Virus record (IMG/VR): IMGVR_UViG_2778261175_000003
DNA from: a virus
Taxonomy: Duplodnaviria > Heunggongvirae > Uroviricota > Caudoviricetes
Strand: one strand, 5' to 3'
Length of the DNA: 37,236 bases
Shown here: positions 593 through 33,910 of the stretch, in pieces
Layout: every line of letters begins with the position of its first letter
Position numbering within the stretch: the first letter of the stretch is position 1
Made by a program: the position numbers and the translations under genes
Notes under the pieces: generated by a model
Told to the model about the DNA's origin: nothing
Databases searched by the model: none
The model's input: only the letters and a program-made list of their open reading frames with translations

Positions 593-802
593 AGCGACCT
601 CCCTTACTGTGGTGCTTCCGCTATTCTAAGTTGTACTGATACAGATTCCAATTAACAGCTTGTCTTGTGTGAAAAGTGGAAGTTCACAATTGTGATAGCC
701 ATTACTAACGTTGTGATGTATTAGTCAACGGGAAACAAGGCATCTGTAACATATCTATGGATATGTTATATTATTGTTGCCATAGGAAAAACCCGCTTTA
801 AA
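593..802. promoter_or_regulatory. AT-rich divergent intergenic region between ogr and the hxs cassette with two palindromes (TCACAATTGTGA at 684-695; ACATATC-N4-GATATGT at 749-766)
   Basis: Perfect inverted repeats read directly from the sequence; the second lies about 37 bp upstream of the first hxs start. Function as operator or promoter is inferred. Confidence 0.3.
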
Positions 803-1117
803 GTGGTTGCTGATCATGAATATTTGTATTGGAAGATAATTGCAATGAGCGAAAGAGTGTTTGAGAAAGAACTATATTCTGAATGGGTTATACGCAATAG
901 TCTATATTGGATGACTCCGCTTACTCGATGGAAACTCCATGAAGACGTTTCCCACTGGATAATCTCTTTTGAAAACGATAATCCCAAATTCCTTTATGAA
1001 TTCGATAGGCTGCTTAATGATTACTCTTTGCGAGAAAAGCTACAGCATAAAACAGGGGCGTTGAGAGACTCTATTGTCCATAAAGTGCTTCGCAGTGTTG
1101 ATGAGAGGCTTTCATAA
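803..1117 (+). CDS. hxsD: Small protein at the head of the Hxs cassette, HxsD-like by position
   Basis: ORF track (GTG start at 803; alternative ATG at 845). Stop overlaps the start of the next gene (TAATGG). Assignment by operon context only. Confidence 0.45.
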   Translation: MVADHEYLYWKIIAMSERVFEKELYSEWVIRNSLYWMTPLTRWKLHEDVSHWIISFENDNPKFLYEFDRLLNDYSLREKLQHKTGALRDSIVHKVLRSVDERLS

Positions 1118-3610: not shown

Positions 3611-4242
3611 AAAAGTTTAATTTTGCTGCTCTACTTCCGGGATTTTTGGCTCTCAACAATTCTGTATGGGCAAGCGATTCATCTACAGGAGCGAGTGATT
3701 TACCTGGTATGACTCTTAATGAGCATGATTTAGTGATAGCTCCACTTAACACGGAAGTCCCATTTTATATCGCAGGGCATCGAAGCCATAGTTCTCATAG
3801 GAGCCATAGCTCTCATAGATCCTCATCAGGTGGTGGATACTATGGTGGAAGTACCCCCTATTATCCAAAAACATACAGCTCACCAAGTTCATCTGGTTCT
3901 TCAAGTTCAGGTGCAAGTTCCTCATCGTCCTCTTCCTCGGTGCGTGCACTTCGTTCTAACGATAATAATAGAACCACTAACACGAGTTCTGTTGGAACTT
4001 CAGAGGTTAACCGTACGAGTAATGGGCTTGCTTCTGATGCAGAGAAACGTAAGCGATTGATTATGCGAGTTCAGTTCGCATTGCTGGACAGGGGATTTTA
4101 TAACGGAAATATTGACGGCATAATGGGGCCATCCACAAGGCTGTCTGTGAAAAATTACCGCATTGCGAATGGATTACCGATTCCTGCAACTGAAACACTC
4201 GACACACAATTGTTAAATTCTTTGAATATATTAGCTCGCTAA
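3607..4242 (+). CDS. hxsA: His-Xaa-Ser repeat protein HxsA-like: signal peptide, (HxS)x5, Ser-rich linker, C-terminal peptidoglycan-binding-like domain
   Basis: Start taken at MKKFNFAALLPGFLALNNSVWA (ATG 3607) rather than the track start 3529. Contains HRSHSSHRSHSSHRS, a poly-Ser tract and a C-terminal segment (RVQFALLDRGFYNGNIDGIMGPSTRLSVKNYRIANGLP) resembling PG_binding_1 domains. Confidence 0.75.
   Translation: MKKFNFAALLPGFLALNNSVWASDSSTGASDLPGMTLNEHDLVIAPLNTEVPFYIAGHRSHSSHRSHSSHRSSSGGGYYGGSTPYYPKTYSSPSSSGSSSSGASSSSSSSSVRALRSNDNNRTTNTSSVGTSEVNRTSNGLASDAEKRKRLIMRVQFALLDRGFYNGNIDGIMGPSTRLSVKNYRIANGLPIPATETLDTQLLNSLNILAR
3778..3822 (+). repeat. Coding tandem repeat encoding five His-Xaa-Ser units
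   Basis: DNA reads cat-cga-agc-cat-agt-tct-cat-agg-agc-cat-agc-tct-cat-aga-tcc; position derived from codon arithmetic in the hxsA frame. Confidence 0.8.
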
Positions 4243-4406
4243 ATCTCAGTGAGGTATAAATAAAAAGCAATAAATTATATTAGTCGCGCGTCCATTATTG
4301 GTGGGTAAGTTCAAGGACCGTCTGCTCTGTGTCAGGGGCAGATGGTCAGATAAGACTGTGCCGTTTAGCCCGCTAGTACGTGTCTGGACTAATACATTTA
4401 AGAGTC

Positions 4407-5678: not shown

Positions 5679-6860
5679 ATGAGTGAAACACGCTTTCACG
5701 GTGCACGCGTCAAAGAAAACACCGACCTCGTGACCGCGATTAATGACATTGATTCCAGTGTCATCGGTATCGTGGCCACGGCGGACGATGCAGACAGCGA
5801 CGCGTTCCCGTTAAACAAGCCCGTATTGATCACCCGCGTGGCGAATGTGCTGGGTAAGGCAGGCACAACAGGCACGCTGTACAAAACGCTCAAGGCGATT
5901 TCCGACCAGACCAGCCCGAAGGTTATCGTGGTGCGTGTGGCAGAAGCCGGAGAGGAAGGTGAGACACAGGATCAGCTTGTCATTGGTGGCTCGCAGGCTG
6001 ACGGCAGCTACACGGGCATGTATGCCCTGCTGGTTGCTGAACAGGACGAGAGCATTGGTTACCGCCCGCGCATTCTGGCGGCTCCCGGCCTGGATACCGA
6101 AGCAGTCACATCCGCCCTGTGCGTCATTGCGGACAAGCTCCGCGCCTTTGTGTACGCCGGATGTAACGGGTGCGACACGATGGCGGAGGCAATCACTTAC
6201 CGTGCGAAGTTCTCCGCGCGTGAGCTGATGCTGCTGTGGCCTGACTTCATTGCCTACAACCCGGTGAGCGGAAATAACGAAACATTTCCGGCAGCGGCGT
6301 ATGCGTGCGGGTTGCGTGCGCGGATTGACAGTGAACAGGGCTGGCACAAGTCACTGTCCAACGTGGCGCTGAAAAATGTTCTCGGTATGTCGCAGCAGGT
6401 GTTCTGGTCGTTGCAGGCCGAAGACAGTGATGCGAACAACCTGAACAACAAGGAAATCACCACGATTATTCGCCGTAACGGCTTCCGCTTCTGGGGGAAC
6501 CGTACTGCCGAAACCAGCGACTACATCTTTGAGGTGTACACGCGCACAGCGCAGATTCTGGCAGATACCATCGCTGAGGCGCAGTTCGAAACCATTGACG
6601 AACCGCTGACCCCGGCGAACGTGAAGGACGTGATTAGCGCCATCCGCGCAAAACTCAACGCCCTGGTGACGGCCGGGAAACTCATCGGTGCGGAGTGCTG
6701 GTATGACGTGCTGGACAACGGCACGACGGATTTGCGTCAGGGGCGCGTGCGCATCCGTTATAAGTACACGCCAGTGCCGCCGATGGAAGATCTGACGCTG
6801 TATCAGACCTTCACGGATGAGTATTTCGACTCCGCTTTTGCAACGCTGGGAGGTGCGTAA
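5679..6860 (+). CDS. FI: Contractile tail sheath protein
   Basis: Strong similarity to P2 gpFI (e.g. FPLNKPVLIT, ELMLLWPDF, RRNGFRFWGNRT, YKYTPVPPMEDLTL). Start at ATG 5679 with AGGAGG RBS. Confidence 0.9.
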   Translation: MSETRFHGARVKENTDLVTAINDIDSSVIGIVATADDADSDAFPLNKPVLITRVANVLGKAGTTGTLYKTLKAISDQTSPKVIVVRVAEAGEEGETQDQLVIGGSQADGSYTGMYALLVAEQDESIGYRPRILAAPGLDTEAVTSALCVIADKLRAFVYAGCNGCDTMAEAITYRAKFSARELMLLWPDFIAYNPVSGNNETFPAAAYACGLRARIDSEQGWHKSLSNVALKNVLGMSQQVFWSLQAEDSDANNLNNKEITTIIRRNGFRFWGNRTAETSDYIFEVYTRTAQILADTIAEAQFETIDEPLTPANVKDVISAIRAKLNALVTAGKLIGAECWYDVLDNGTTDLRQGRVRIRYKYTPVPPMEDLTLYQTFTDEYFDSAFATLGGA

Positions 6861-7376
6861 ATGGCTGTACCACGTTACGTTCGCCAGTTCACGCTGTTTG
6901 TGAACGGCAAAAACAAAATCGGCACGGTGACAGGCATCACTCTGCCCAAGCTGACCCGAAAAACCGAAGCCTATCGCGGTGGCGGGATGCTGGGTGCGGT
7001 GCATATTGACCTCGGACTGGATGACGGCGCACTGGATGCCTCGTTCACCACCGGTGGGGTTGAAAAAGAGCTGCTCCAGGAATACGCCACTGACATTAAC
7101 GAAGTGGCGCTGCGCTTTGTGGGTGAGCTGTTCACCGATGGTGAGGAAAGTCAGCTCCTTGAGGTGGAGATGCGCGGACGCATCACGGAAATCGACCGTG
7201 GCGAAACCAAACAGGGCGACACCACGCAGTACACCTTCGCCGTCAAAAACACCTACTACAAGGAGTCGGTGGATGACAGCGATGTGACAGAAATCGACCT
7301 GCTGAACTTCATCTACAAAAAAGACGGCCAGAACGTCTTTGGTGACCGCGTGAGTTCGGCGCTCGGTCTGAACTGA
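6861..7376 (+). CDS. FII: Tail tube protein
   Basis: Position directly after FI, size (171 aa) and similarity to P2 gpFII. Confidence 0.85.
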   Translation: MAVPRYVRQFTLFVNGKNKIGTVTGITLPKLTRKTEAYRGGGMLGAVHIDLGLDDGALDASFTTGGVEKELLQEYATDINEVALRFVGELFTDGEESQLLEVEMRGRITEIDRGETKQGDTTQYTFAVKNTYYKESVDDSDVTEIDLLNFIYKKDGQNVFGDRVSSALGLN

Positions 7377-11959: not shown

Positions 11960-12055
11960 ATGGCCTTCATGGAAAAGAAGCAAATGTTGTCAATACATTC
12001 TGACTATATATAAATCGCCTGATGATGGCAATGGTGATATTCGGGAAATAAAAAA

Positions 12056-12072
12056 GCCCTCGCAAAGAGGGC
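12056..12072 (-). terminator. Hairpin GCCCTC-GCAAA-GAGGGC preceded on plus strand by an A-run (minus-strand intrinsic terminator)
   Basis: Read directly from the sequence. Confidence 0.45.
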
Positions 12073-12245
12073 AACATGCATTGTGTGAAGATTTAATTTT
12101 TCTGGTTGCAGGGGGGATTATATTGAACTGTATTCATTTAATGCAATATTTTTAATTGTCATCATCATTGATGAAAATATTTCTTGTGTTTTTGTTGCCC
12201 TGATTACAATTTCACTCATTACTGTGTCTTTGCGGCAAAAAAAAA

Positions 12246-12262
12246 GCCCGCACGGGGCGGGC
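12246..12262 (-). terminator. Hairpin GCCCGC-ACGGG-GCGGGC preceded on plus strand by nine A (strong minus-strand intrinsic terminator)
   Basis: Read directly from the sequence. Confidence 0.55.
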
Positions 12263-12963
12263 AAGGAATGTTTGCATGTGTATAACACTGCGGGATTATA
12301 AATAAATTACGCGTTCTGTAAAATCCCCTTTGATGGAGATTCAGGCCATACCAGCGCATTATAACAATCTTCGTCCTTCACGGAAGTGAAAGTCACCTGC
12401 TGAAGTTCTTTAATGTATTCAATTCACGCAGCCAACCTTCCTTTGTCTTGATCGCTGATGGTGCCGGGCAATAACTCAGATTGCCAGATTCTGATCCTCT
12501 CTTTTGCCTCCGGCAGCAGGGGATTTCGTTGTCATTCTGCTTTAGCCTGCCACTTTTCAGGTGGCAGCACATGACGAACAATATTTTCATCATCAAATAT
12601 CCAGTTACCTGAGTCATCAGCACGTTGGTTAGCGTTAATATCAGAAGTATTAACAACACTAAAACCGACATGATTAAGTGTTGATGCCTCTCTGGTAATG
12701 GTGACAATAATATTATTTCGTTGTAAATCATTTTGATTTTATCTGGTCGAAAGGTCCCTGCATCGTTATGCCGGTTTTTATTTCCTTCAGAGGAAATATG
12801 ATTACTTTGTGCTTCTTTTTTAACACATACAGTCTGGAGTTAATGTTGCCTGTTTTATGTTCTTGAGTGCGTCATATTAATCTCTTACATATTATATCTG
12901 GTACAATTTATAGTTTTCTGAAGCTTGCCTGAAAGAATTGAGTTTCCTGCAGGCTTTCAAGGG

Positions 12964-13062
12964 GGTGATGATGATATGCGGGAGAAACTTCAGCCTGCAT
13001 CTGTGTGGGGAATCACTGAATACGCTTAAAGACAAATCGTCGTCGCTGAACGCATTCCCTTA
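12964..13062 (+). pseudogene. Degraded duplicate of the 3' end of tail gene U
   Basis: About 75 nt align at roughly 85 percent identity (by eye) with the true U 3' end at 11840-11915 (GATGA.GATATG.GGGAGAAACT.CAG.CTGC.TCTG...CTGAA.ACGCTTAAAGACAAA), with a 1-nt deletion breaking the frame. Confidence 0.6.
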
Positions 13063-13108
13063 ACCTGACGCCACCACCTCATACAGATAACGAGGTGGTA
13101 GCGTGATT

Positions 13109-13402
13109 TCACCAGTAACTAACCGACAGCCAGAACAACAGGCATGTTGCCACCGGTACAGCAAAATCCATCAGGCTTCCGGCATCCCACACGCGCGGAT
13201 CAAAACCACCCCACCATGGCATGTTAATTCGTTTCCCTTTCCCGAATTTTTCAATCCAGCGATATTCTGCCTGGGTGTGTTCACGTGCAATGAAGAACGT
13301 ACAGCCAGCTACCGCACCATAAGTCCAGTTTCCGGTGAAAAGCCCGGCCAGAAGCTGAGCAGCCACAGCACAAAGTGCATGAAGCAAGGGGCTTATATCC
13401 AT
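13109..13402 (-). CDS. Hypothetical small membrane protein (97 aa, two hydrophobic segments) downstream of the tail-fibre module
   Basis: ORF track; hydrophobic N- and C-terminal stretches; no family recognised. The antisense 13103-13756 ORF is judged a shadow. Confidence 0.4.
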   Translation of the reverse strand: MDISPLLHALCAVAAQLLAGLFTGNWTYGAVAGCTFFIAREHTQAEYRWIEKFGKGKRINMPWWGGFDPRVWDAGSLMDFAVPVATCLLFWLSVSYW

Positions 13403-13414
13403 TGTTTTCTCCCT

Positions 13415-13693
13415 TCAGCTCCATTCCCGAAGCGGTGTTTCCAGCTCCACCACATAATCAGAGAACACAGAAATATCAAACGCATCATCAAGAATGCGGA
13501 TGTTGACAAAATAACCGTCATTCCGGATACAGACAGCTTCCCCCTCTTCAGTTACCCCTGTTTCTGTGTAGGTGAAACCAATTTCATTGACCAGAAGTTT
13601 GTTCTGGAGGTCTTCGTTTTCCTCCCAGTCAAGAGACGACAGGAATGCTTTAAACTGCTGTTTATCATGAAATTTCAGGGTCAGATCTTTCAT
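13415..13693 (-). CDS. Hypothetical acidic protein (92 aa) translationally coupled to H; possible tail-fibre accessory/assembly factor
   Basis: ATGA overlap with the H stop; occupies the position of P2 gene G but no sequence similarity recognised. Confidence 0.4.
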   Translation of the reverse strand: MKDLTLKFHDKQQFKAFLSSLDWEENEDLQNKLLVNEIGFTYTETGVTEEGEAVCIRNDGYFVNIRILDDAFDISVFSDYVVELETPLREWS

Positions 13694-15456
13694 ACCGCCT
13701 CCTTGATTTGTCTGTCGTTTAATTCTTTATGCCATAGGCGGAAATTACGAATATGACCAAACAAATGACGCGTTCCTGCTGCTGTCTGCCCACCAAAGCG
13801 GCATAAATTTGCTGTAACACCAAATGTTTTCCCTTCAGCGGTTACCGCATAATTACCATTGCATATTGCATTTATCGCCAGGTCGGCTCCTGCCCTCAGC
13901 CCCATAATGAATTTATCTCCATCGGCGAGGATTTTTGCGTTGATCATTCCCACTCCAGCAACTATTGTTCCCGCCGAGGAAAAATTAAGCGACATATAAT
14001 CGTTATCAATGCTGTATCCTCCGGTGTCAAATACCCTTGGCGCAATATTGGGGGGAGTATTCCAGTTTTTGTTCACTTCGCACAATACGGTAAAAGGTCG
14101 TGCTGACAGGTTATTTTTCGCAGGGATTGTTACCACATCACTGGCTCTTGTCGTTGCGCTGGCTCCCGAAACAATAAATGATGATACACAAGCACCATCC
14201 TCAACTTGTGGAGTAGCAAGATAAATATAATCACCGGATGCAATTGTTCCACCCCATTTAGGTGAACACTGGATCTGAGAGCCTATTTTTAACTCACCCT
14301 CAATTGCCTCAATTGTTGCCTCGGCAAAAATCCAGCCAGTAGTCTCATCTTTTCTGGCTCTGGCTGAAATTCTGTCTGAGGCATCTCCGGTCGTATTAAT
14401 TTCAAACGTCTGTGTATCAATGTACGCATCACCAAGAAAAGTTGTTGCACTGCCGTCATATTTATCAAACCGGATGCGGAGCCTTAGCTGTAATTCTGTT
14501 TTAAATCGGCATGAGGTTGTCACGTACTTGTTATCGCCAGAGACATCAACCGCCTCTGTTGCAGCAACTGATGCCATATTTACAGCGGAGGTCTGCCCAA
14601 TCAGAGAATCGTTGCAGACAAACTTCCCATAAGTAAAACCAAAACTATCCGTCCCGGTTTCGGGTACATCCATACTTACTGACTTGCCCCAGTTGGCCGG
14701 GGTTTCCGAATTGAGCATGTAGTTTGTTCTTTGCCCTTCAATCAGCAGACCTTCGCGCTCAAATCGTGGCTCATTAATTTCCGCCGTTTTCAGTTCACCC
14801 GATTTATTGATATAGGTTGCCGTTGATGCGCGCGTGAAACTAACCTGTTTATCACTGGCAACCTGAACCACATCATCACCAATGGTGATTTTTTTATAGC
14901 CCGGAGCGAACCCCGTAAGCATATCCAGTGAATCGTTAAACGGTATCCATACATCAGGCAGCGGCGGTACAGAGTCCTTTTCCTGTGCAACATATTCTTC
15001 AACATAGGCGCGGGTGGCGAGCACGACAGAGGGATCAACTTTCAGCTCGACGGATGAAGCACTGGAAACCACAACAATCATGCGAATTGTCTGCGTGCGC
15101 CCGCTTCCCTCGGCGAGTACGGGCTTGTAGGTTTCGGGGCAGTTCGCCACGGCAATCATCACGCCGTCGCTGTCAAAAAGCCCAATCTCGCGGATCCAGA
15201 ACCCCCCTTTGTCTTCCGGGATAATCATCTCGGCGACAAGCTGGCTGGCATCGGACGCGCTGACGCTCAGTTGATTCAACGGGGCGCTGTATACCGTGTT
15301 CACCAGCTTTTCCATGGACGCCGCCGGTTCCGGCAGGCTGCCGCCGCCATCTCCCAGTTTCATGGTGGTGATGGATATTTTTGAGCCGCTGGCCACCGCC
15401 TTTGCCAGACGGGCAGCACCTTTGTCAGTCAGAACAGAAAAATATTTTACAGTCAT
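13690..15456 (-). CDS. H: Tail fibre protein with P2 H-like N-terminus and a divergent, LamG/ConA-like C-terminal receptor-binding region
   Basis: N-terminal about 150 aa closely match P2 gpH (MT.K...V.T..GAA.LA.A...G.K..ITTM..GDGGG.LP.P...). C-terminus ends GHIRNFRLWHKELNDRQIKEAV, a pattern recalled from LamG-type jellyroll domains. Confidence 0.8.
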   Translation of the reverse strand: MTVKYFSVLTDKGAARLAKAVASGSKISITTMKLGDGGGSLPEPAASMEKLVNTVYSAPLNQLSVSASDASQLVAEMIIPEDKGGFWIREIGLFDSDGVMIAVANCPETYKPVLAEGSGRTQTIRMIVVVSSASSVELKVDPSVVLATRAYVEEYVAQEKDSVPPLPDVWIPFNDSLDMLTGFAPGYKKITIGDDVVQVASDKQVSFTRASTATYINKSGELKTAEINEPRFEREGLLIEGQRTNYMLNSETPANWGKSVSMDVPETGTDSFGFTYGKFVCNDSLIGQTSAVNMASVAATEAVDVSGDNKYVTTSCRFKTELQLRLRIRFDKYDGSATTFLGDAYIDTQTFEINTTGDASDRISARARKDETTGWIFAEATIEAIEGELKIGSQIQCSPKWGGTIASGDYIYLATPQVEDGACVSSFIVSGASATTRASDVVTIPAKNNLSARPFTVLCEVNKNWNTPPNIAPRVFDTGGYSIDNDYMSLNFSSAGTIVAGVGMINAKILADGDKFIMGLRAGADLAINAICNGNYAVTAEGKTFGVTANLCRFGGQTAAGTRHLFGHIRNFRLWHKELNDRQIKEAV

Positions 15457-24208: not shown

Positions 24209-24268
24209 AACAGGAAGCGCAGGCAGGACGCGCGCGGGTAGCCTGTATGACAGGAGGTGACAGACGGC

Positions 24269-26011
24269 ATGATTCAGGACGCATTCATCAGGCTGCGGGC
24301 AAAACAGCTTTACTGGCAGGGTTACCCGCCCGCTGAAATATCGCGGCTGATGGGTATCAGTCAGAACACGATTTATTCGTGGAAAAAACGCGACGCATGG
24401 GATGAAACGCCGCCCGTGGAGCGGGTTGCGCAGTCGATTGATGCGCGGCTGGTTCAGTTGACCTCAAAAGCTGAAAAGAGCGGCGGTGATTTTAAGGAAA
24501 TCGACCTGCTGACACGCCAGCTCGCAAAACTGCATGGCAACAGGGGCGGAGCGGAAAAAAGTCCGCGAAAACGAAAGCTGAAAAACCATTTTTCCGAATC
24601 GCAGGTTGCCGCACTACGTGAACACATCACCGGTCAACTGGCAGAGCATCAGCGACGCTGGTATGAGGCGCTGGAAGTCTGCCGTCGTGCCGGTGTTGAT
24701 ATTCGCATCATTGTGAAATCCCGACAGATAGGCGCGACCTGGTATTTTGCGCAGGAGGCACTGCTGCGTGCGCTGGATGAGAGCGTGAAATATCCGTACC
24801 AGCGAAACCAGATTTTTTTGTCAGCCTCGCGCCGTCAGGCTTTTCAGTTTAAAGGCGTGATTCAGAAGGCGGCACAGGCTGTAGACGTCGAGCTGAAAGG
24901 CGGTGACAAAATTGTGCTTTCTAACGGCGCGGAACTGCATTTTCTGGGGACATCCGCCGCGACTGCACAGTCATACACGGGCAATCTGTATTTTGACGAA
25001 TTTTTCTGGGTGTCGAACTTCATCACGCTGCGCAAGGTCGCAGGCGCGATGGCCACGCTGAATGGCCTGACGCAGACCTACTTTTCCACGCCGTCATCGG
25101 AGATGCACGAGGCGTTTCAGTTCTGGAACGGGGCGCGGTGGAATGCAGGGCGACCACGCAGTGAGCGCCGGGAGATTGATGTGTCCCATCACGCCCTGAA
25201 GAGTGGCGTGCTGTGCCCCGACAGTGCGTGGCGGCAAATCGTGACGATTCAGGATGCGGTGGACCTGGGCTGGACGCTCACCAGTATCGACAAAATCCGC
25301 AACATGAACACGCCGGATGAGTTCCGCAATCTCTACATGTGCGAATTTGTCAGCGACGGCGAATCCGCCTTCGACCTTAATGCCCTGCTGGGCTGTGGTG
25401 TGGACGGCTATGACGAGTGGAATGACTGGAAACCGTTCGCAGCACGTCCGGTGGGTAATCGTCCGGTGTGGATTGGCTACGACGCTAACGGCAGCAGCGG
25501 TAACGGCGACAGCGGGGCGCTGTCTGTTGTTGTTCCGCCTGCTGTCAGGGGCGGCAAATTCCGCACGGTGGAGACATTGCAGGTGCAGGGGCTGGAATTT
25601 GAAGAGCAGGCCCGTGTGATTGAGCAGTTCACGCACAAATACAACGTGCAGCACATCGGTATCGACGTGACCGGCGGTAACGGTGAGGCGGTGTACCAGA
25701 TAGTGCGGCGGTTCTGGCCTGCCGCCGTGCCGTACACGTTCACGCTGGCATCCAAACGCGCGCTTGTGCTGAAGATGCTGCAGATTATTCGTGCGGGGCG
25801 CTGGGAGTATGACCGGGGCGAACGTGAGCTGGTCAGGGCATTCAACGCCGTGCGCAAGGCGAAAACAGCGGGCGGGGCAATAACGTATGAAACAGACCGC
25901 ACACGCGGCGTGAACCACGGCGACCTCGCGTGGGCAACCATGCTTGCCGTCATTAACGAGCCGCTGGGCGATGAGGATGGAGCAACAGGAATGCGGGTGA
26001 TTGAGTTCTGA
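24269..26011 (+). CDS. P: Terminase ATPase (large) subunit P
   Basis: Strong similarity to P2 gpP. The track GTG start at 24257 overlaps the AGGAGG Shine-Dalgarno sequence, so the ATG at 24269 is preferred. Confidence 0.85.
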   Translation: MIQDAFIRLRAKQLYWQGYPPAEISRLMGISQNTIYSWKKRDAWDETPPVERVAQSIDARLVQLTSKAEKSGGDFKEIDLLTRQLAKLHGNRGGAEKSPRKRKLKNHFSESQVAALREHITGQLAEHQRRWYEALEVCRRAGVDIRIIVKSRQIGATWYFAQEALLRALDESVKYPYQRNQIFLSASRRQAFQFKGVIQKAAQAVDVELKGGDKIVLSNGAELHFLGTSAATAQSYTGNLYFDEFFWVSNFITLRKVAGAMATLNGLTQTYFSTPSSEMHEAFQFWNGARWNAGRPRSERREIDVSHHALKSGVLCPDSAWRQIVTIQDAVDLGWTLTSIDKIRNMNTPDEFRNLYMCEFVSDGESAFDLNALLGCGVDGYDEWNDWKPFAARPVGNRPVWIGYDANGSSGNGDSGALSVVVPPAVRGGKFRTVETLQVQGLEFEEQARVIEQFTHKYNVQHIGIDVTGGNGEAVYQIVRRFWPAAVPYTFTLASKRALVLKMLQIIRAGRWEYDRGERELVRAFNAVRKAKTAGGAITYETDRTRGVNHGDLAWATMLAVINEPLGDEDGATGMRVIEF

Positions 26012-27066
26012 TGAAAAAACAAAAACGAAAACAAACGTATTCCCGCCGGGATGACGGCGGGGATCTGGCAGATGCACTGCGTCATCAGCCATCGTTAAGC
26101 GCTTTCTCGTTTGACGGGCCTTATGATGCGCACGCGCTCGACCTGCTGGATAACGCATACTGCCTGAGTAACGGCAGGTACTACGAAACACCCGTTGACT
26201 GGTACGGGCTGGCGCGGGCATCCCGGCAGACCTCGTGGCATCAGTCGGCGCTGTACTTCAAACGAAATGCCATTCTGGGCTGCTTCATTCCGCACCGGCT
26301 GCTGTCCCGGCAGGCGTTCTCCGCCTTTGCGCTGGACTGGTTTGTCTTCGGGAATGCGTTTCTTGAACTGCGCACCAACAGGCTGGGCGGAAAACTGGAA
26401 CTGCGGCACGCACTGGCGAAGTACACCCGCCGTGGTGTGGAGCCGGATGTGTACTGGTTTGTGCAGACGGGCGAGCAGGATCACGAGTTCCGTCAGGGGC
26501 GCGTCTGTCATGTGCTGAACCCTGACATCAACCAGGAGATGTACGGAATGCCGGAATATCTCGGCGGCCTGTTGTCTGCCAGTCTGTCGCATTCGGCAGA
26601 TCGTTTTCGCAAACTCTACTATGACAACGGTTCACACGCAGGCTGCATTATTTACGTGGGAGCAGCACAGGTTGACCGCGAAAGCATGCAGGCGCTCGAA
26701 AGAGCGTTGCAGGGCGCAAGAGGCGGTGGGGCATTCAAAAACCTGCTGCTCCAGGCACCGAACGGCGGGAAGGACGGTGTGCAAATCCTGCCGTTCCAGC
26801 AGATCACCGCCCGGGATGAGTTTATGAACGTCAAGGCTGCCTCCCGCGATGATGTGCTGGCTGCTCACCGCGTACCACCACAACTGATGGGCGCAATGCC
26901 CAGCGGACAGGGGTCATTTGGTGATGTGGAGAAGGCGGCAAGAGTGTTTGCGATCAACGAACTGATGCCGGTGATGGAGGCGATGAAGCACGTTAATGAC
27001 TGGCTGGGCGAGGAGGTGATCCGCTTTAACCCTTACGCACTGCTGGATACCCCGCCCACATCCTGA
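26011..27066 (+). CDS. Q: Portal (capsid vertex) protein Q
   Basis: Similarity to P2 gpQ; coupled to P (ATGA overlap). Confidence 0.85.
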   Translation: MKKQKRKQTYSRRDDGGDLADALRHQPSLSAFSFDGPYDAHALDLLDNAYCLSNGRYYETPVDWYGLARASRQTSWHQSALYFKRNAILGCFIPHRLLSRQAFSAFALDWFVFGNAFLELRTNRLGGKLELRHALAKYTRRGVEPDVYWFVQTGEQDHEFRQGRVCHVLNPDINQEMYGMPEYLGGLLSASLSHSADRFRKLYYDNGSHAGCIIYVGAAQVDRESMQALERALQGARGGGAFKNLLLQAPNGGKDGVQILPFQQITARDEFMNVKAASRDDVLAAHRVPPQLMGAMPSGQGSFGDVEKAARVFAINELMPVMEAMKHVNDWLGEEVIRFNPYALLDTPPTS

Positions 27067-27084
27067 CGCGCTCCGCTTGTCTGC

Positions 27085-27125
27085 TGCTTCGTCGGGGCAT
27101 AAAAAATTTATGCCCCGACGAAGCA
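27085..27125. terminator. Perfect palindrome with 19-bp arms (TGCTTCGTCGGGGCATAAA / TTTATGCCCCGACGAAGCA) just downstream of Q
   Basis: Read directly; likely bidirectional terminator or structural element at the Q/cos boundary. Confidence 0.5.
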
Positions 27126-27506
27126 GCTCCGGTGTGTCACGCACCGGGCATCTCAGGGATCTACCAGGTCTGAATAACCTGTCAGCACACGCGCACCAAA
27201 GCGCATTACAGGGCATGTTATGTGTCAGCCCATATTTCATGCACAACCAATAAAACATCGCGTCAGGGGCGCAATCAGCCACATTTCTGGCGATTTCTGA
27301 GGATGCTTTCAGACCCCAAATTGCGGGCTGTTCCCCCGGCACCTGCGCGCAACAAAAACGCGTTTTTTTGTGCGCGCACGGATCCTTGACGGATCCAGCC
27401 GCCACGCGGGCCGGAAGGGCAAAAAGTCGTTCAAAAAAATTGTGCAAATTTGTGCACTATTGTGCAGCAGGGCGATGTGTGATTATCGCCCTGGTTTGTC
27501 GTGGAT
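27126..27506. other. Putative cos / packaging region (by synteny only)
   Basis: In P2 cos lies beside Q. Contains a second near-palindrome (27345-27377). The P2 cos sequence itself was not recognised. Confidence 0.25.
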
Positions 27507-28124
27507 CTAATTATCTTCTGTCTCCTGCCACGAGACTTTTCCGCCAGCCTTTATGATGGCTCGTTCAACATCTCTTTCGTACCGCAAAGGCTGGAATACT
27601 CCGTTAATGAAATACTCCTTTGGGTTCGGGATCTGCACTGTAAATGTGCCACGCTCTGATGTTGGGCGACGCACCTCTTTCTCAAAAGAAAGCGAGTTGT
27701 TATGCATTAACGCAGCATACTTTAGTGCATCCTGTGCTTTCTGAAATTTCAGTGCGTAGTCAGTAGCGATCTCTTCCAGTGCTGCGATGCGCTTACTTCC
27801 ATCCGCGATAACACCTTCGAAATACTCACGCTGCTCGTTGAGTTTTAATTTTACCGACTCCAGTTGTTTTGTTAGTTCTGCAATACGGCAAACATCGTTG
27901 ATACGCGTTTCTTCTAATGCGTTGCTCTCATCCAGTAGCGTCAGCACGGTTTCTGGTCCGGCCAGAAATTTGAAGGCGTTGAGCGCATCAATATCAACAC
28001 CGCTATCTTTAAGTTCCTGTTCGCTTATCAGATCATCATCAACTGGCAACATTAACAGGCGGTCCATTGCCGGAATTGCACGCTCTGCCGCCTCACGCAG
28101 TGCCTGATAGTCAATCTTGCTCAT
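27507..28124 (-). CDS. Coiled-coil protein of unknown function, possibly Ead/Ea22-like
   Basis: N-terminus MSKIDYQALREAAERA resembles the conserved N-terminus I recall for Ead/Ea22-like prophage proteins; ATGA-coupled to the upstream gene. Confidence 0.4.
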   Translation of the reverse strand: MSKIDYQALREAAERAIPAMDRLLMLPVDDDLISEQELKDSGVDIDALNAFKFLAGPETVLTLLDESNALEETRINDVCRIAELTKQLESVKLKLNEQREYFEGVIADGSKRIAALEEIATDYALKFQKAQDALKYAALMHNNSLSFEKEVRRPTSERGTFTVQIPNPKEYFINGVFQPLRYERDVERAIIKAGGKVSWQETEDN

Positions 28125-28711
28125 GGGATAACTCCTTTGTGTTGCGTCAGCTCTTCCTGCGCCTGCATCATGCGATTGACCAGAACGTGCGTGCGTCGAA
28201 CGGAAAAAACAAACAGATTCAAAAGGCGGCGCATCTCTTTGTCCTCATGTCGCGCATGACGGAGAAAGGCAAGTCGGTAGAACTCGGATTCGGCAGCGCG
28301 TTGAATCAACGACAGATCAAAGTGAAGTGCTGGTCTGGTGCATTTTGCGCATCTGGCGGCAAGCTCTGGCATCAATCTCTTAACGAAGGTGTTTTGTACT
28401 GCTTTGTTGAGTTGTGTCTGCATCCAAATCGCAAATTTCAGCGAACGCATGAGCCGGATCGCGTCGGGCAACGGCAGATAGATCATGCTGGCGGTTTTGG
28501 GTAGCGGATGAATCATTTTCACGGAGACGCGATCGCGCAGTGTTCGAAAAATCGTGTTCCCGACAACAGACTCCACGGAGACAGGGCAGGGGGCCAGACC
28601 AACCCGCAACGCGTTCGTCATGAACAGATATTCATCTTTTTTCATCGTGTTTTCCTTAGTGCGGGGGCGACAGTGCGCCCCGATAAAATTAAAAGCCGTC
28701 AAATTCGTCAT
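28121..28711 (-). CDS. Hypothetical protein (174-196 aa depending on start)
   Basis: ORF track; alternative start at MKKDEYLF (28645) with AAGGAAA RBS; no family recognised. Confidence 0.4.
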   Translation of the reverse strand: MTNLTAFNFIGAHCRPRTKENTMKKDEYLFMTNALRVGLAPCPVSVESVVGNTIFRTLRDRVSVKMIHPLPKTASMIYLPLPDAIRLMRSLKFAIWMQTQLNKAVQNTFVKRLMPELAARCAKCTRPALHFDLSLIQRAAESEFYRLAFLRHARHEDKEMRRLLNLFVFSVRRTHVLVNRMMQAQEELTQHKGVIP

Positions 28712-29044
28712 TCATCTTCCTGCTCCCTGCGTTCCTTGTTCTTCTCGGATAACGCTGTTGCACACTTCCACACACTCGTCGCAGATGAAAACGTCGTCCC
28801 CGGAAAATAACTTTTTGACGGCGTGCTGTGGTTTCTTGCAGAAGCTGCAATAAAGCGTTCGCCTGACAGATACGGACGATGTGTAGGATGCCAGCCTCGT
28901 GATGTCGTCCTTGCGACGCAACATCACACGGCAGCACTCAACCAGTTTTTCCGGGGGGATTTCTTCCTCTGTGGCGAGCGCCTCCAGTCGTTCTATCAGA
29001 TGGAGTGCTTTTTCCGGGGGCATTGCAGAATATGCTGTGGTCAT
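28712..29044 (-). CDS. Small protein with C-terminal ClpX-type C4 zinc-binding domain (110 aa)
   Basis: C-terminus [39 protein letters not shown] closely matches the ClpX N-terminal zinc-binding domain ([39 protein letters not shown], from memory). No AAA+ module follows. Confidence 0.7.
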
Positions 29045-29056
29045 CTTCTTTCTCCT

Positions 29057-29257
29057 TCAAAGTTCAGTGTGTTGACAGAGCTGCCCTTTGCGACAGACCA
29101 GTACGCTCCCTTTGCTTGAGTCGGTGATTGTCACCGTGCCGTCATCGCACTGGACAGCGATGACTGTGTTGCTCTTTTCCGTTGTGCAGTTCGGTGTGGC
29201 CGAGTGCGCCAACGGAACGAAAAACAGCGAAAAAAGTAATGTCAGTCTTTTCGTCAT
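29057..29257 (-). CDS. Small secreted protein (66 aa) with signal peptide and four Cys
   Basis: Start at MTKRLTLLFSLFFVPLAHSA with AGGAGG RBS; mature part about 45 aa. Confidence 0.5.
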   Translation of the reverse strand: MTKRLTLLFSLFFVPLAHSATPNCTTEKSNTVIAVQCDDGTVTITDSSKGSVLVCRKGQLCQHTEL

Positions 29258-29332
29258 GGCTACCTCCTGCTTCCTGTTTCTGAGGCATGGCGCACCAGAT
29301 AAAAACTGTCCGCCATGCCTTATCACGTTGCC

Positions 29333-29644
29333 TTATTCTGGGAATAACGCCCTGATGTTTGCGGCCATCTGGCTGGTTGTCTGAGCCTCTGGCGCAGCCT
29401 GTGTTTTGGTTTTTTCTGCACTGACCTGTGTCACGGGTAATGGCTCATCGTCAGCCCATGCAGCCAGCCGGTAAGCCTCTGCCGGATTCTTCTTCAGAAG
29501 CGCCAGTCCGGCCAGAAAAGCCACACGCTGGCCGCTTTTGCGGGCTTCTGGTGTAAGGCTGTCCAGCCAGGCACATGCTTCGCTTTCGTTCTTGACTGCC
29601 GCAGGCTTCAGATAGAAACTTATCCGTCTGGTTGATGTCGTCAT
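29333..29644 (-). CDS. parR: ParR/StbB-like partition adaptor
   Basis: Pattern RRISFYLKP....LDSL.PE.R...RVAFLAGLAL parallels R1 ParR (RRTIAFKLNP....LDSIPQGERSRLNRAALTAGLAL); sits directly downstream of the parM-like gene. Confidence 0.7.
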   Translation of the reverse strand: MTTSTRRISFYLKPAAVKNESEACAWLDSLTPEARKSGQRVAFLAGLALLKKNPAEAYRLAAWADDEPLPVTQVSAEKTKTQAAPEAQTTSQMAANIRALFPE

Positions 29645-29647
29645 GAT

Positions 29648-30607
29648 CTATTCCCTGTTCATGGCGTGGAGACCATTAACCAGAGCAAACTGTGGCACCC
29701 CGTCCGCGATAAAAGTCGCATTAACTCCGCAGGCTTCGCGGACAGCGGGTGCCACAATCTCCGCCCCTCCACCGACAACCATCACCCGCCCGTAACCCGA
29801 AAAGCTCGCCAGCGCGCGGAGTACACGTTGTTTCAGTGTTTCTTCCTTTTCACGAATAACCGCCATCAGGCTGTTGTAATGTGCGTCATTGTGGATGTGC
29901 TGGCGCAGCCAGGCTTCATCATGGCGATGTTCGATAATGGTATTGGCGATGTGGTGACTGGTGCGCATACCGTTAGTGGCCATCACCGACAGTACGGCAT
30001 CGGCCATCAGAGAAACGCCTACGTGTGGATCGCAAAACACCTGGCTGATACCTGCCAGTTGTCCCTGAACCTTTGCCACATCCAGCGTGGTTCCGCCTAA
30101 ATCCACAATCAGCAGGGATTCAAACGGACTCATGTCAGCCAGCGCCTTAAAGCCAGCCGGAATGGATTCAGGCATAACCCGCACGTTACGGATAGTGAAT
30201 GCTTCGCCGTTCTGGTACTCCACCGGGCGCATAACGTTCGCTTTTTTGCGGTTGATGTTGGTCATATCCGGCTGGGCGTTTGTATCGAAATACTCGCTCA
30301 GTGGCAGGGTGACAACCACATCCACCTCCTGTGGTGTGATGCCTGATTTGACCAGCGCGTGATGAATGGCAATGACATTCACATCGCTGTACTGGTATTG
30401 CGTGTCGGTCGTCTGGACAAAGCGATCGCTGACCGGATCAAAACCATAGCGCACGCCATCAAGCATGTAGTTCGCGGGCTGCGTGCCACCGAACGGTGCA
30501 GACCATTCCGACTTGAAGCTGTTCGGGCTGATGGCGTTGCGGCGTTCGCCGTTCTCAGTCCAGGCCAGCTTGATGTTGGTGGAGCCGTCGTCGATACAAA
30601 TTTTCAT
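29648..30607 (-). CDS. parM: ParM/StbA-like actin-family segregation ATPase
   Basis: N-terminus MKICIDDGSTNIKLAW and internal motifs (YSDVNVIAIHHAL, MPESIPAG, LIVDLGGTTLD, MVVGGGAE) match plasmid R1 ParM as recalled. Confidence 0.85.
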   Translation of the reverse strand: MKICIDDGSTNIKLAWTENGERRNAISPNSFKSEWSAPFGGTQPANYMLDGVRYGFDPVSDRFVQTTDTQYQYSDVNVIAIHHALVKSGITPQEVDVVVTLPLSEYFDTNAQPDMTNINRKKANVMRPVEYQNGEAFTIRNVRVMPESIPAGFKALADMSPFESLLIVDLGGTTLDVAKVQGQLAGISQVFCDPHVGVSLMADAVLSVMATNGMRTSHHIANTIIEHRHDEAWLRQHIHNDAHYNSLMAVIREKEETLKQRVLRALASFSGYGRVMVVGGGAEIVAPAVREACGVNATFIADGVPQFALVNGLHAMNRE

Positions 30608-30643
30608 GTCGATTTTCCTTATATTGATGAATTAATCGTTTAT

Positions 30644-30747
30644 GGGATTTTTAAATCCTGTTTTTGCCTGTTTTATGCGCGCTTTATATTTCGCGGCGCG
30701 TTTTTTGCTCATTTACGGGATTTGTGAATCCCGTTTCTGTCTGTTTT
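30644..30747. repeat. Two 31-bp imperfect direct repeats, each with an internal inverted repeat (GGGATTT-N3-AAATCC..GTTT.TG.CTGTTTT), upstream of parM and overlapping the 3' end of A
   Basis: Copies at about 30644-30674 and 30717-30747, separated by an AT-rich spacer; candidate parC-like centromere/operator or part of the replication origin. Confidence 0.45.
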
Positions 30748-33524
30748 TTGTTTCCACTGGTCAGGCCACCCCGCAGCAGGTCTGCTTTGCGGCGGGCGCG
30801 TTCAGTGGTTTCACTGATTCTCTGTGCGTGCTCCGCGTCACGGATGGCGCGCAGCATGTCAGAAAGCACGGTAACGGGGGTTTTCATGGTGTTCTGGTCC
30901 TGCTGAAGTGTGGATGCCAGGCGTGCGGCGGCTTCGGGGTCTGATGCCCCCAGCTGTTCCAGATAGCTGGCGACCGGGTTATGGCGGATCTCCGTGCTAC
31001 TTACGCCGTGATTACGGCTCAGGCGCTGCCAGAGCTGCGTGATTCGGCTGTCCGGGCGGGTATCCGGTTTGCGTACAATTTCAAATCCCTGCGGTGCAAT
31101 GATGCTGCCGTCAACGTACAGACTGCCGCCCCGTAACAGGTGCTGCATCTGTTGTTCACCGATATGCAGGCCGAGAGATTCAGCAGACTCACGCCATTCT
31201 TTAGCGAGTAATTCGTGGTTATCAGGCAAAGGCCGCTGCTGTTTGCAGCTCTGTGTCCAGCTCTGCATTTCATCACTGCTGTTTTTTGCCTGTTTGTCAC
31301 GAAGCGAACGCATCAGCGCCCGGCGTTCGTGCCGTTTCAGTGAGCGTATCCATTCGTTCACTTCAACGCCGTCAGGGAGCTGCGGCCACGGTGCTGACCG
31401 TTCTTCCGGCTGTTCTGTCCCGTTGTTGTCCGTTTCCTGTACACGGGGACAGTTATTGCCACGAGTCCAAGGGGCGGCAGGGCCGCCCTGAAGGTCAAAA
31501 CCATTTTCGCGGGCGCTGTCTTCCGCTTCCGGTTTGCGTCTTACCAGCTTCCAGCTATCCGGATGCGTGCACACACGGGAGGATTCCCCGATGAGTGGTG
31601 ACCAGATCCCGTAAATCTGTACGCTCTGTTCGCCGTAATCGTTCAGCTCATCTGCGAGGTTGTAGGCGGTGCGAATCAGGTAGTCTTTGCGTGGAACAAG
31701 TACGCCACCCTGTTTCTCAATGTAGGTGGCAAAACACCCGGCATCAGCGGCAGCGAGTACCGCATCCATTGCGTCATTTTCCAGACGTTGTGGACCTTCC
31801 GGGTTGCGGGCCATCTGACTGGCAAGGCGGCGGAGTTCACGCCATACCTGACGGGAGGGGATACCAAAGAACTGGAACTGGCGGACGCGGTGAAGACGCG
31901 CCCAGCCGATGGCGCGTTCCACGCTCTCGGCCATTGATTTTCCGGTTTCGTGGTCCACGCGTGGCTTGCCCGTTTTCGGGTCGATGCCATCCACGGCGCG
32001 GCTGTCCAGGTTCTTTCCGATGTAGGTGGCGATGTAGCTGGTTGGCGTGCCTTTTGAGCCGTCGACGTACTCCGCCTTAAAACGCGGAGTTATGTCATCG
32101 CCCAGCTCGTGGCGGTCTTCCAGAATGGCAATATCGCAGACGTGGGACACGATGGTTTCAATCTCGTCAGGATGAGCAAAAACCATCATGTGCCAGTGCA
32201 CCGTGCCGTCATGATGAGGCTCCACCGTGCGGATGCCATACCAGCGCAGGCCGTCGCGGTTCAGTTTTTTGCGGACCGCCGCAAAAAACGTGTTAACCAG
32301 GTAATCGCTGGAGTCGCGCATAGTGGCCCCGTTCCATTTGGGATTCGGATGACCGTTCTCCGTTGTTGCGTGGTATTTTGACGGGCAGGTGACAGTCAGA
32401 AACACCGCTCTGTCGCCACGGGCTTCGGCCAGAAGTTCCAGCCCCTTCATGGTGGCCATCATTTCTGCCTTACGGTGAACCGGGTTACTTACTCCCGCGT
32501 AATACACTGTCTCGAGATCAATCGTGAACCCGTCTTCATTTTCCAGCATGAAACTTTTCAGGAAATCGCGTGTTTTCTCGCGCTGTGCGCGAAACTCGCT
32601 TAACGCGTCCTGGCTCAGATAGGGTGATGTTTTTCTGGAAACCAGACAGGCGGCGCGGAGTTGTTCTTCTCTCCACTCGCAACGTAACAGCCACAGTTTG
32701 CGTTTCCACCATTCCGCACAGGTCAGGCGAAGGATTGCGCCCGGCAGCAGCTCCGTGTCCGGTTCGTTCCTCCGGTCTTTGTCTGTTGTCAGTGCGTCAT
32801 AATGTGGAGGCGTGGCGTGCAGGTGTAACGCCATGCGGGCCAGCATCTGATACGCCTTCAGCGTTACATCCATGGTCAGTTCGCCATCAGTCGCGCCAAA
32901 GCCATCGCAGAGTTTTTCGAAGGTGCTGCTGAACATCGCCGCCGTCATGGTGGCCAGCGTCTGTATCTGGTGTTTGTTGAGCTGCGGCAGGTAAAGCAAA
33001 TCGTCCAGGCGTTCGCGTCCGGCAAGGGAGCGATAACCCGGTGTCAGCCAGCGGTGATCGGTGCGGTCCAGACGTTCGAATATTTTGCGCAGGGTTCCGC
33101 GCGCGTAGCGTTCAGCCTGCCAGCTCTTTTTGCCTTTCTGGCGATCGGCTTCCTGTTTTTTGCGCAGGAAAGAGAGGTGGCGGCTCAGTGGTTCACGCAG
33201 ATAAACAGGTAGTGCCTTTAGTATGGCAAAGGCACGGGCTACCGGGTCTTGTTCTGTTGCCCGGCGCTTACTGATGATGCTCTGTGCCAGCTTTTCACGC
33301 TGTCCGGCTTCCTCAAGGGATGCCATGAGTTTTTTACCCATGGCAGATTGTGCGAAAAAGGCTTCTTCCTTCGCTTCCTGTTCTTCCTGTGCCCTTTTGT
33401 CCGCCTCAAGGTAGTAACGGATGGCGCGTTGCAGGTCGGTTTCAGTTTCCTGCCTGCGCTCCGTAAATCTGGCCGGATCAATGGCTGGTCGTGGTTCATT
33501 CCAGCTCCATGCAAACTCACTCAT
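30684..33524 (-). CDS. A: Replication initiation endonuclease A (rolling-circle, HUH-type)
   Basis: Very long ORF with HUH motif (TVHWHMMVFAHP) and tyrosine pair (YIATYIGKN). Start at MSEFAWSW (ATGA overlap with the upstream gene). Longer than P2 A as I recall it. Confidence 0.8.
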   Translation of the reverse strand: MSEFAWSWNEPRPAIDPARFTERRQETETDLQRAIRYYLEADKRAQEEQEAKEEAFFAQSAMGKKLMASLEEAGQREKLAQSIISKRRATEQDPVARAFAILKALPVYLREPLSRHLSFLRKKQEADRQKGKKSWQAERYARGTLRKIFERLDRTDHRWLTPGYRSLAGRERLDDLLYLPQLNKHQIQTLATMTAAMFSSTFEKLCDGFGATDGELTMDVTLKAYQMLARMALHLHATPPHYDALTTDKDRRNEPDTELLPGAILRLTCAEWWKRKLWLLRCEWREEQLRAACLVSRKTSPYLSQDALSEFRAQREKTRDFLKSFMLENEDGFTIDLETVYYAGVSNPVHRKAEMMATMKGLELLAEARGDRAVFLTVTCPSKYHATTENGHPNPKWNGATMRDSSDYLVNTFFAAVRKKLNRDGLRWYGIRTVEPHHDGTVHWHMMVFAHPDEIETIVSHVCDIAILEDRHELGDDITPRFKAEYVDGSKGTPTSYIATYIGKNLDSRAVDGIDPKTGKPRVDHETGKSMAESVERAIGWARLHRVRQFQFFGIPSRQVWRELRRLASQMARNPEGPQRLENDAMDAVLAAADAGCFATYIEKQGGVLVPRKDYLIRTAYNLADELNDYGEQSVQIYGIWSPLIGESSRVCTHPDSWKLVRRKPEAEDSARENGFDLQGGPAAPWTRGNNCPRVQETDNNGTEQPEERSAPWPQLPDGVEVNEWIRSLKRHERRALMRSLRDKQAKNSSDEMQSWTQSCKQQRPLPDNHELLAKEWRESAESLGLHIGEQQMQHLLRGGSLYVDGSIIAPQGFEIVRKPDTRPDSRITQLWQRLSRNHGVSSTEIRHNPVASYLEQLGASDPEAAARLASTLQQDQNTMKTPVTVLSDMLRAIRDAEHAQRISETTERARRKADLLRGGLTSGNKKQTETGFTNPVNEQKTRREI

Positions 33525-33910
33525 GGCTGGTATCCCGTCACGCGCTGCCACTCCTGCAAGAAGATGGTGGAAAGGCGGTTAAATTCAGCGGTGTATTCAC
33601 TCAGCGAGACACACCCGCCAGCAGTGCGATGCGCCAGCATTGCCGCAAATACGGAGGCCGGGGAGTCGTAATACGCCAGCAGTGATTCGCCGTGCGGTGT
33701 CAGGCAGTGCAACGCCAGTCCGTGTGGTGTGAAGTCCACGCGGTAGCAGTCGTCTACTGTGAAATAAAGGGTATCCACATTCTCCGGTTTTGTGGTGCGT
33801 GCTCTGTTGTCACGACCACGAATGTAGAGATCAAATAATCCCCGAAGAATGGGAGCCAGACGGGTGTCCTGTGTGCGCACCCATCTTGTGAAGTCATGAG
33901 CGTCAATCAT
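33521..33910 (-). CDS. Hypothetical early-region protein (129 aa)
   Basis: ORF track; translationally coupled to A; no family recognised. Confidence 0.45.
   Translation of the reverse strand: MIDAHDFTRWVRTQDTRLAPILRGLFDLYIRGRDNRARTTKPENVDTLYFTVDDCYRVDFTPHGLALHCLTPHGESLLAYYDSPASVFAAMLAHRTAGGCVSLSEYTAEFNRLSTIFLQEWQRVTGYQP

Follow-up and report, generated by a model that had tools for sequence, protein, structure and literature searches.

In P2-like phages the main hotspot for accessory and defence cargo is the cos-proximal slot between the replication gene gpA and the portal gene gpQ (Rousset et al. 2022, PMC9122126; Moura de Sousa et al. 2026, PMC13586616), and the old and tin genes of P2 have exclusion activity (PMC9122126). 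Here we analyse two overlapping minus-strand genes that occupy this slot in a P2-family prophage, carried on a 37,236-nucleotide stretch of DNA (IMG/VR virus record IMGVR_UViG_2778261175_000003) that is called the window throughout and to which coordinates refer unless another sequence is named. The downstream gene (27507-28124, 205 aa) encodes an Ead/Ea22-family protein and the upstream gene (28121-28645, 174 aa) an orphan protein; they are the last genes before cos. The prophage is reversed relative to the P2 map, and its nearest sequenced phages are the P88-like Xuanwuviruses of Escherichia coli. The host is E. coli or a very close relative, since an identical 174-aa protein stands in identical context on eight NCBI contigs and E. 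coli chromosomes match the left flank of the window at 99.9% identity.

Among the closest described systems is ea22 of the lambdoid phages. The only experimental phenotype in the Ea22 family is a pro-lysogenic role in lambda and Phi24B: deletion of ea22 from either phage shortens latency, enlarges the burst and lowers host survival, and lysogeny is reduced at all multiplicities of infection (m.o.i.) tested in lambda and at m.o.i. 5 and 10, not 1, in Phi24B (PMC7093339). Lambda Ea22 is a tetramer, and its C-terminal domain is acidic, dimeric, non-enzymatic and without known partner (PMC10834534).

The downstream protein of the window had been described in the original prediction, made from the letters of the DNA, as an Ea22-like coiled-coil protein, and this description is confirmed by database searches. 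It matches the Pfam family PF13935 with 73.8 bits (gathering cut-off 27, E=2.6e-20), the profile positions 1-139 of 139 being aligned to residues 2-117, and it also matches PHROG 250 and 368. BLASTP against lambda Ea22 gives E=4e-19 with 33% identity overall, the similarity stopping near aa 117. With the lambda Ea22 and Phi24B homologues it shares the N-terminal motif MS(K/E)I(D/N)xQALREAAE, and with lambda Ea22 the nearly identical coiled-coil core KLNEQREY(F/Y)EGVI(A/S)DGSKRIA. The layout is likewise tripartite, the C-terminal domain being the variable part: aa 1-117 comprise an N-terminus and a coiled coil like those of lambda Ea22, and a conserved helix (EEIATDYALKFQKAQDALKYAAL) and a small mobile C-terminal domain (EYFINGVFQPLRYERDVERAIIKAGGK) come after them. 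Both proteins are acidic, and both are encoded by accessory genes of temperate enterobacterial phages, non-essential in lambda and probably so here. The downstream protein is thus a true Ead/Ea22 family member, in which a conserved scaffold carries one of many interchangeable C-terminal domains. The resemblance to lambda ends at that domain and at the genomic setting. The solved C-terminal domain of lambda Ea22, a mixed alpha-beta dimer, is unrelated to that of the window protein (no alignment was found past residue 117), and lambda ea22 lies in the pL-driven exo-xis region, whereas the window gene, in a P2-family phage, stands in the gpA-cos slot behind parMR. The alpha-beta domain is peculiar to lambda, and membership in the Pfam family does not depend on it.

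The family is very large (4214 clusters at E<=1e-5), is found mostly in lambdoid phages without partition genes, and is modular. After the conserved SKRIAELE junction at least 8 different tails are present in the 120 best Ea22-family clusters, and the tail of the window protein is found in only 22 of these 120. The same C-terminal domain occurs in lambdoid Ea22 proteins, in gp56 of the P88-like phage P88_4B11 and, as a stand-alone 96-aa open reading frame (ORF) at the start of the nin region, in the P22-like phages ST160 (Orf86) and SE1. The DNA of the 5' two-thirds of the window gene is 90-94% identical to ea22 of Shiga toxin (Stx) phages and phage-plasmids, and therefore the gene was put together by recent recombination. 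Sequences of the Protein Data Bank (PDB) gave no match to the Ea22-like protein at E<=1 except noise, and the AlphaFold2 (AF2) model of its C-terminal part is of low confidence (pLDDT 58, pTM 0.36). A relation to P22 EaD or to EaE (Oad2-like) was considered and rejected; no similarity was found to P22 EaE, EaD or EaF.

A close counterpart in a sequenced phage is gp56 of P88_4B11. It too is encoded by the last gene before cos (and before the end of the genome record) next to the same parMR genes, and it has the same C-terminal half, which by tblastn matches the final 82 residues of the window protein at 59.8% identity. It differs in having a zinc-ribbon-like N-terminal module and in having no 174-aa gene upstream, whereas the window additionally has genes for a 66-aa peptide and a ClpX-zinc-finger (ClpX-zf) protein.

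The upstream gene was first taken as a 196-aa ORF reaching 28711. This ORF exists, though it is the longest ORF only, and the gene is almost certainly the 174-aa one at 28121-28645, starting at M23 (MKKDEY), because the annotation by PGAP in E. coli, the gene calls on the eight contigs and five of the six homologues all begin there, and an AAGGAAA ribosome-binding site lies 6 nt 5' of the M23 ATG. The N-terminal extension of the longer reading (28646-28711) corresponds to the 66-nt spacer between the stop of the ClpX-zf gene and the 174-aa start. On the minus strand this spacer contains the ribosome-binding site and a weak GGGGCG/CGCCCC hairpin, which was tried as a regulatory RNA and rejected, being no more stable than shuffled sequence (z = -0.33).

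The 174-aa protein is a conserved, basic, helical orphan under purifying selection and confined to the gpA-cos slot. Searches of Pfam, PHROGs, PADLOC and NCBIfam gave no match to it, a profile search of the PDB returned nothing at E<=10, a BFVD search with its model nothing at E<=0.001, and neither tblastn against 50,697 phage records nor a pattern scan of the GTDB species representatives found a relative. Its AF2 model is mostly helical (pLDDT 63, pTM 0.65) and the fold matches are generic helical hairpins only. A profile search of 1.84 billion representative proteins returned only the family itself, three representatives at 50% identity, and at 90% identity the family forms nine clusters. 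The gene is present in 29 of 5426 complete E. coli genomes and on one plasmid, where it lies within an integrated P2-like prophage; every context seen is the gpA-cos slot of an enterobacterial P2-like prophage. Two candidate relationships were dropped: the segment IYLPLPxAxRLM as an AbrB/MazE strand-helix motif, for which no search gave support, and a relation to the 176-aa gene that follows ClpX-zf in the phage-plasmid PhiR41_1, where none was found.

The two genes overlap by 4 nt, the ATGA at 28121-28124 being common to the upstream stop and the downstream start, with GGAG 8 nt 5' of the Ea22-like ATG; in these respects the two coupled minus-strand ORFs are exactly where they had been predicted. 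The overlap is kept in E. coli homologues at 78% identity, and the stop of the orphan is overlapped by an Ea22-like gene not only in the window but also in UMNF18, A8 and the plasmid copy, in a 48%-identical homologue whose neighbour is SSB-like instead of ClpX-zf, and in a prophage without parMR. Because 4-nt overlaps are frequent in this prophage (gene calls place them at three or four other junctions), the overlap alone says little on functional pairing.

The two genes mostly travel together, but the link is not obligate. The pair had been presented as a unit, and its distribution speaks against a fixed one: this Ea22-like C-terminus stands at cos in about 169 of the 5426 E. coli genomes versus 29 with the 174-aa gene; Ea22-like genes in the slot lack the orphan about six times more often than they accompany it. 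Conversely, what follows the orphan of Shigella sonnei (75% identical) is not an Ea22-like gene but a gene for a DUF7446 protein and then a zinc-ribbon ORF. On that contig, positions 6522-6961 hold the 79-aa DUF7446 protein (GTG start, 4-nt overlap) and then the 61-aa zinc-ribbon ORF. Between the window and UMNF18 the orphan is 97% identical and its Ea22-like partner only 66%, because the N-terminal module of the latter has been replaced. The obligate co-occurrence by which a type II toxin-antitoxin pair is recognised is, given these genome counts and the DUF7446 case, not what was found. An orphan homologue followed by an Ea22-like start was also seen in a P2-like prophage without parMR.

In composition the pair departs from the backbone, as had been noticed at first sight: the guanine-plus-cytosine (GC) content is 46.9% in the Ea22-like gene and 51.4% in the upstream gene versus 57-58% in gpP, gpQ and gpA, a difference that is clear for the former and modest for the latter. 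The products are of opposite charge, the 174-aa protein being strongly basic (isoelectric point, pI, 10.45) and the Ea22-like protein acidic (pI 4.76). The ratio of non-synonymous to synonymous substitution rates (dN/dS) against homologues is about 0.2 for the orphan and 0.23-0.41 for the Ea22-like gene, compared with 0.06-0.10 for the portal and 0.11-0.14 for parM. By these ratios both ORFs are real genes under purifying selection.

The cos-proximal position that had been assigned to the pair holds as well. The ends of the linear P88_4B11 record (NC_049391) join at 27421/27422, 85 bp past the Ea22-like stop, and this point falls within the non-coding block kept in all P88-like phages compared (27320-27478, from an alignment of five relatives). 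The 19-mers of P2 and 186 cos have no match (>=7 mismatches), and the position of cos therefore rests on the record ends and the conservation. Directly 3' of the Ea22-like stop, a scan for terminator-like sites and the fold energy revealed two hairpins on the minus strand (27442-27493) with a fold energy of -21.7 kcal/mol (z = -4.18, none of 200 shuffles being equally stable). One, with a 9-bp stem (27468-27493), is kept in the relatives that have an Ea22-like gene; the other (27442-27457, GUGCAC...GCAC followed by U7) is inside the block common to all P88-like phages. The two likely mark the end of a transcription unit just before cos, and the second hairpin may belong to the cos region rather than to a terminator.

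The native promoter that had been presupposed for the pair was not detected: a crude consensus scan found no sigma-70-like site upstream of either gene, and the one promoter-like site inside the Ea22-like gene is at chance level (1 versus 3.0 +/- 1.6 in shuffles). Along the minus strand from 30607 to 27507 no other internal promoter or terminator was found except a weak terminator-like site inside parM, and an Rfam scan of 26900-30800 gave no match. Tightly packed co-oriented genes, short spacers, the lack of a promoter-like site upstream of either gene in the crude scan and 3' hairpins together fit one transcript, from parM or the early operon to just before cos; the upstream genes (28712-30607) are the probable source of the pair's transcription.

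The genes around the pair define the slot. On one side, the terminase gene gpP (24257-26011, plus strand) is followed by the portal gene gpQ (26011-27066, plus strand) and the non-coding region; on the other, the packed minus-strand run ends at gpA (30684-33551). The array in between is on the minus strand and reads, cos-ward, parM (29648-30607; Pfam StbA_N/ParM_N), parR/StbB (29333-29644; Pfam Plasmid_stab_B), a 66-aa signal-peptide ORF (29057-29257; also called as a gene on the identical contigs), the 110-aa ClpX-zf protein (28712-29044; Pfam zf-C4_ClpX, E=2e-16), the 174-aa gene and the Ea22-like gene, with gaps of 3, 75, 12, 66 and -4 nt. The product of this ORF carries a signal peptide typical of N-termini (MTKRLTLLFSLFFVPLAHSA), and its mature part contains four cysteines; it matches PHROG 20764 (unknown function) and has no Pfam match above threshold. 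The ClpX-zf gene also occurs in phage P88, and its product, which could compete with ClpX for adaptors or substrates, is 68% identical to that of a gene within the Ea22/EaA/EaE array of the phage-plasmid PhiR41_1; the cassette therefore draws on a shared 'ea' gene pool and has the appearance of an 'ea-type' array moved to a place behind parMR. Two 42-nt direct repeats (81% identical), each with the palindromic core GGGATTnnnAATCCC, straddle the gpA end just upstream of parM (30636-30750) and are a candidate parC centromere/ParR operator.

What stands in the slot downstream of parMR changes from phage to phage: P88 has ClpX-zf and a 112-aa gene, Chuche has genes in reversed orientation, E. coli C7 carries Phd/Doc, and DUF3800 or DUF4760 is found where the backbone is nearly identical. 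Where an opposite-strand Phd/Doc fills the slot, a 90-bp piece of the 174-aa gene, from its 5' end, persists beside ClpX-zf (2501-2590 in the E. coli C7 locus and in about 20 other E. coli genomes; the equivalent of 28552-28642 in the window); it is a scar of cargo replacement. Against the E. coli P88-like prophages parM has 97% protein identity, with a synonymous divergence (dS) of about 0.1, versus only 78% and a dS of about 1.9 for the portal, and therefore the module from parM to cos moved recently between diverged backbones. Both genes of the pair are thus cargo, and their gain, loss and recombination do not follow the phage backbone.

Two further arrangements invite comparison. P22 eaF-eaD likewise has an Ead-family gene after a small unknown gene, with a 4-nt overlap, in a non-essential early accessory array; EaF, however, has no sequence or profile similarity to the orphan and EaD no BLASTP-level similarity to the Ea22-like protein, and what the two arrangements have in common is organisation only. 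The other comparison is with characterised genes: P2 old and tin, which act in exclusion, and Phd/Doc, a toxin-antitoxin pair. With P2 old/tin and C7 Phd/Doc our pair shares the slot, a GC content below that of the backbone and rapid swapping between related phages; it differs in having no homology to them or to PADLOC models and in that a promoter of its own, as P2 old/tin have, was not found.

We tentatively favour an accessory role that serves the phage through protein binding, as a developmental brake or by neutralising a host factor; the orphan would be a second cargo protein and may bind nucleic acids. The pair forms the 3' end of a mosaic accessory array filling the gpA-cos hotspot of a P88-like (Xuanwuvirus) prophage, and both would be 'ea-type' non-essential genes comparable to those of the lambda/P22 exo-xis and ea regions and of the ea arrays of phage-plasmids. 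They would be transcribed by read-through from the parM promoter or from the early operon, with transcription stopping at the hairpins before cos. By analogy with Ea22 of lambda and Phi24B, the Ea22-like protein would be an oligomeric, acidic, non-enzymatic binder, the C-terminal domain of which may engage a host or phage partner, slow lytic development and favour lysogeny; alternatively, it might counteract a host factor, among them possibly an immune protein. The 174-aa protein, whose pI of 10.5 would suit a nucleic-acid binder, would most simply be a separately acting cargo, co-translated with whichever gene follows and not an obligate Ea22 partner. Several points weigh against this proposal. 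The lambda phenotype came from a different C-terminal domain and a different genomic setting (the pL operon), and we found in the literature no functional test of the arrangement, of this C-terminal domain or of P2-like Ea22 homologues. Read-through transcription is inferred from the crude consensus scan alone, and the role given to the orphan is a guess because its fold is not assignable. Moreover, defence or addiction cargo has a sizeable prior, because the slot is the best-documented defence hotspot of P2-like phages and holds Phd/Doc elsewhere, and an overlapping pair with a basic and an acidic product also looks toxin-antitoxin-like.

A rival reading, which we regard as rather unlikely, is a new two-gene anti-phage module of the abortive-infection or toxin-antitoxin type, with which the prophage would exclude competing phages in the manner of P2 old and tin. 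Its effector would be the basic 174-aa protein (a nucleic-acid-binding toxin, for example), and the acidic, oligomeric Ea22-type protein would restrain it or sense infection. The original prediction had likewise proposed accessory or defence cargo. The accessory part is sustained by the hotspot and the variability of the slot; the defence part has positional support only, and for all six array proteins no family matched in PADLOC-DB v2.0.0 (models up to 2023, threshold E<=1). Besides the gpA-gpQ location and the lowered GC, the rapid replacement by cargo that includes Phd/Doc on related backbones, with the 90-bp scar left by the orphan, speaks for such a module, as does the fact that about half of P2 hotspots are without a recognised system while new ones are still emerging there (PMC13586616). 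Small overlapping genes with products of pI 10.5 and 4.8 have the look of a type II toxin-antitoxin system, and the overlap is kept down to 48% identity; neither product, however, has an enzymatic domain or known toxin or antitoxin homology in Pfam, NCBIfam or PADLOC, or a PDB profile match at E<=10, and an own promoter was not detected. The excess of slots with an Ea22-like gene and no orphan, the DUF7446 gene in place of Ea22 and the swapping of the partner's N-terminal module between near-identical orphan copies also speak against it. Ea22 is otherwise a phage early-gene family with a phage-serving phenotype, and the four-gene arrangement with the E. coli homologue of the orphan (WP_033555709) is already in the catalogue of PMC9122126 while being absent from its table of tested systems.

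Counter-defence by one or both proteins, in which the C-terminal domain presented on the Ea22 scaffold would inhibit an immune or recombination protein of the host at an early stage of infection or induction, is in our estimate improbable. It has a precedent in the ea and exo-xis regions of lambdoid and P22-like phages, where proteins against RecBCD and OLD are encoded. Some ea-region products can thus counter immunity, and the EaE-like OLD inhibitor Oad2 is reported fused to EaD/Ea22 modules (2026 preprint, 10.64898/2026.07.10.737580). An acidic, oligomeric and non-enzymatic architecture, if the analogy with lambda Ea22 holds, would suit an inhibitor, and the highly interchangeable C-terminal domains are what an arms race predicts. 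The Ea22-like protein nevertheless shows no similarity to EaE, EaD or EaF of P22, dN/dS is not raised, no target can be named, and anti-defence genes are rarely detected in P2-like phages (28 of 1511; PMC13586616). Still more improbable, in our view, is that the two proteins are ParMR accessories helping an excised or non-integrated phage genome to persist as a plasmid. In its favour, the packed array places the genes just behind parM-parR, the same place can be taken by the plasmid-addiction module Phd/Doc, and Ea22 is reported to have 'functional analogies' to integrase (PMC7093339). Of the 489 StbA-containing loci in part of Table S5 of PMC9122126, 81 also list Ead_Ea22, and most ParMR loci there are without it. 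The idea is weakened by the parMR-less locus described above, which shows that these genes are not always with parMR and hence not fixed members of a ParMRC system; Ea22 genes mostly reside in lambdoid phages that have no partition genes, and the candidate parC repeats are upstream of parM and not close to the pair.

Two other regions of the window differ from the backbone in composition. One, at 500-4250, is a His-Xaa-Ser cassette of low GC (40-43%) located at the prophage's ogr end; it contains genes for two radical-SAM maturases (1117-2505 and 2498-3610) and for a 237-aa protein with a weak peptidoglycan-binding match. The region recurs at 99.9% identity in 48 complete E. coli genomes, with the annotation hxsD/A/B/C, and PADLOC viperin models match it weakly via the common radical-SAM core. 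Between tail-gene blocks, a patch of 39-40% GC (12000-13760) holds the ORFs 12393-12731 (minus strand, 112 aa) and 13103-13756 (plus strand, 217 aa), neither with a Pfam or PADLOC match; this patch may be a second cargo hotspot within the tail genes.

The Ea22 family, the hotspot and the catalogued arrangement were already known; to these our analysis adds a corrected start, a confirmed family membership and a narrowly distributed orphan family. The Ead/Ea22 genes are among the commonest uncharacterised genes of enterobacterial temperate phages, the mobile C-terminal domain described here is common to P2-like, P22-like and lambdoid phages, and the gpA-cos slot of P2 has repeatedly been a source of new immune systems. 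The locus is a compact case of module shuffling among P2-like phages, lambdoid phages and phage-plasmids, and the pair would matter more if its function were conflict-related. We consider it unlikely that the orphan and the Ea22-type protein form a new two-component hotspot module, either with a nucleic-acid-targeting effector that an Ea22 tetramer would release upon infection (abortive infection) or with a counter-defence domain delivered by Ea22; if they did, the Ead/Ea22 family, with its more than 4000 clusters, would gain its first molecular role in phage-phage or phage-host conflict.

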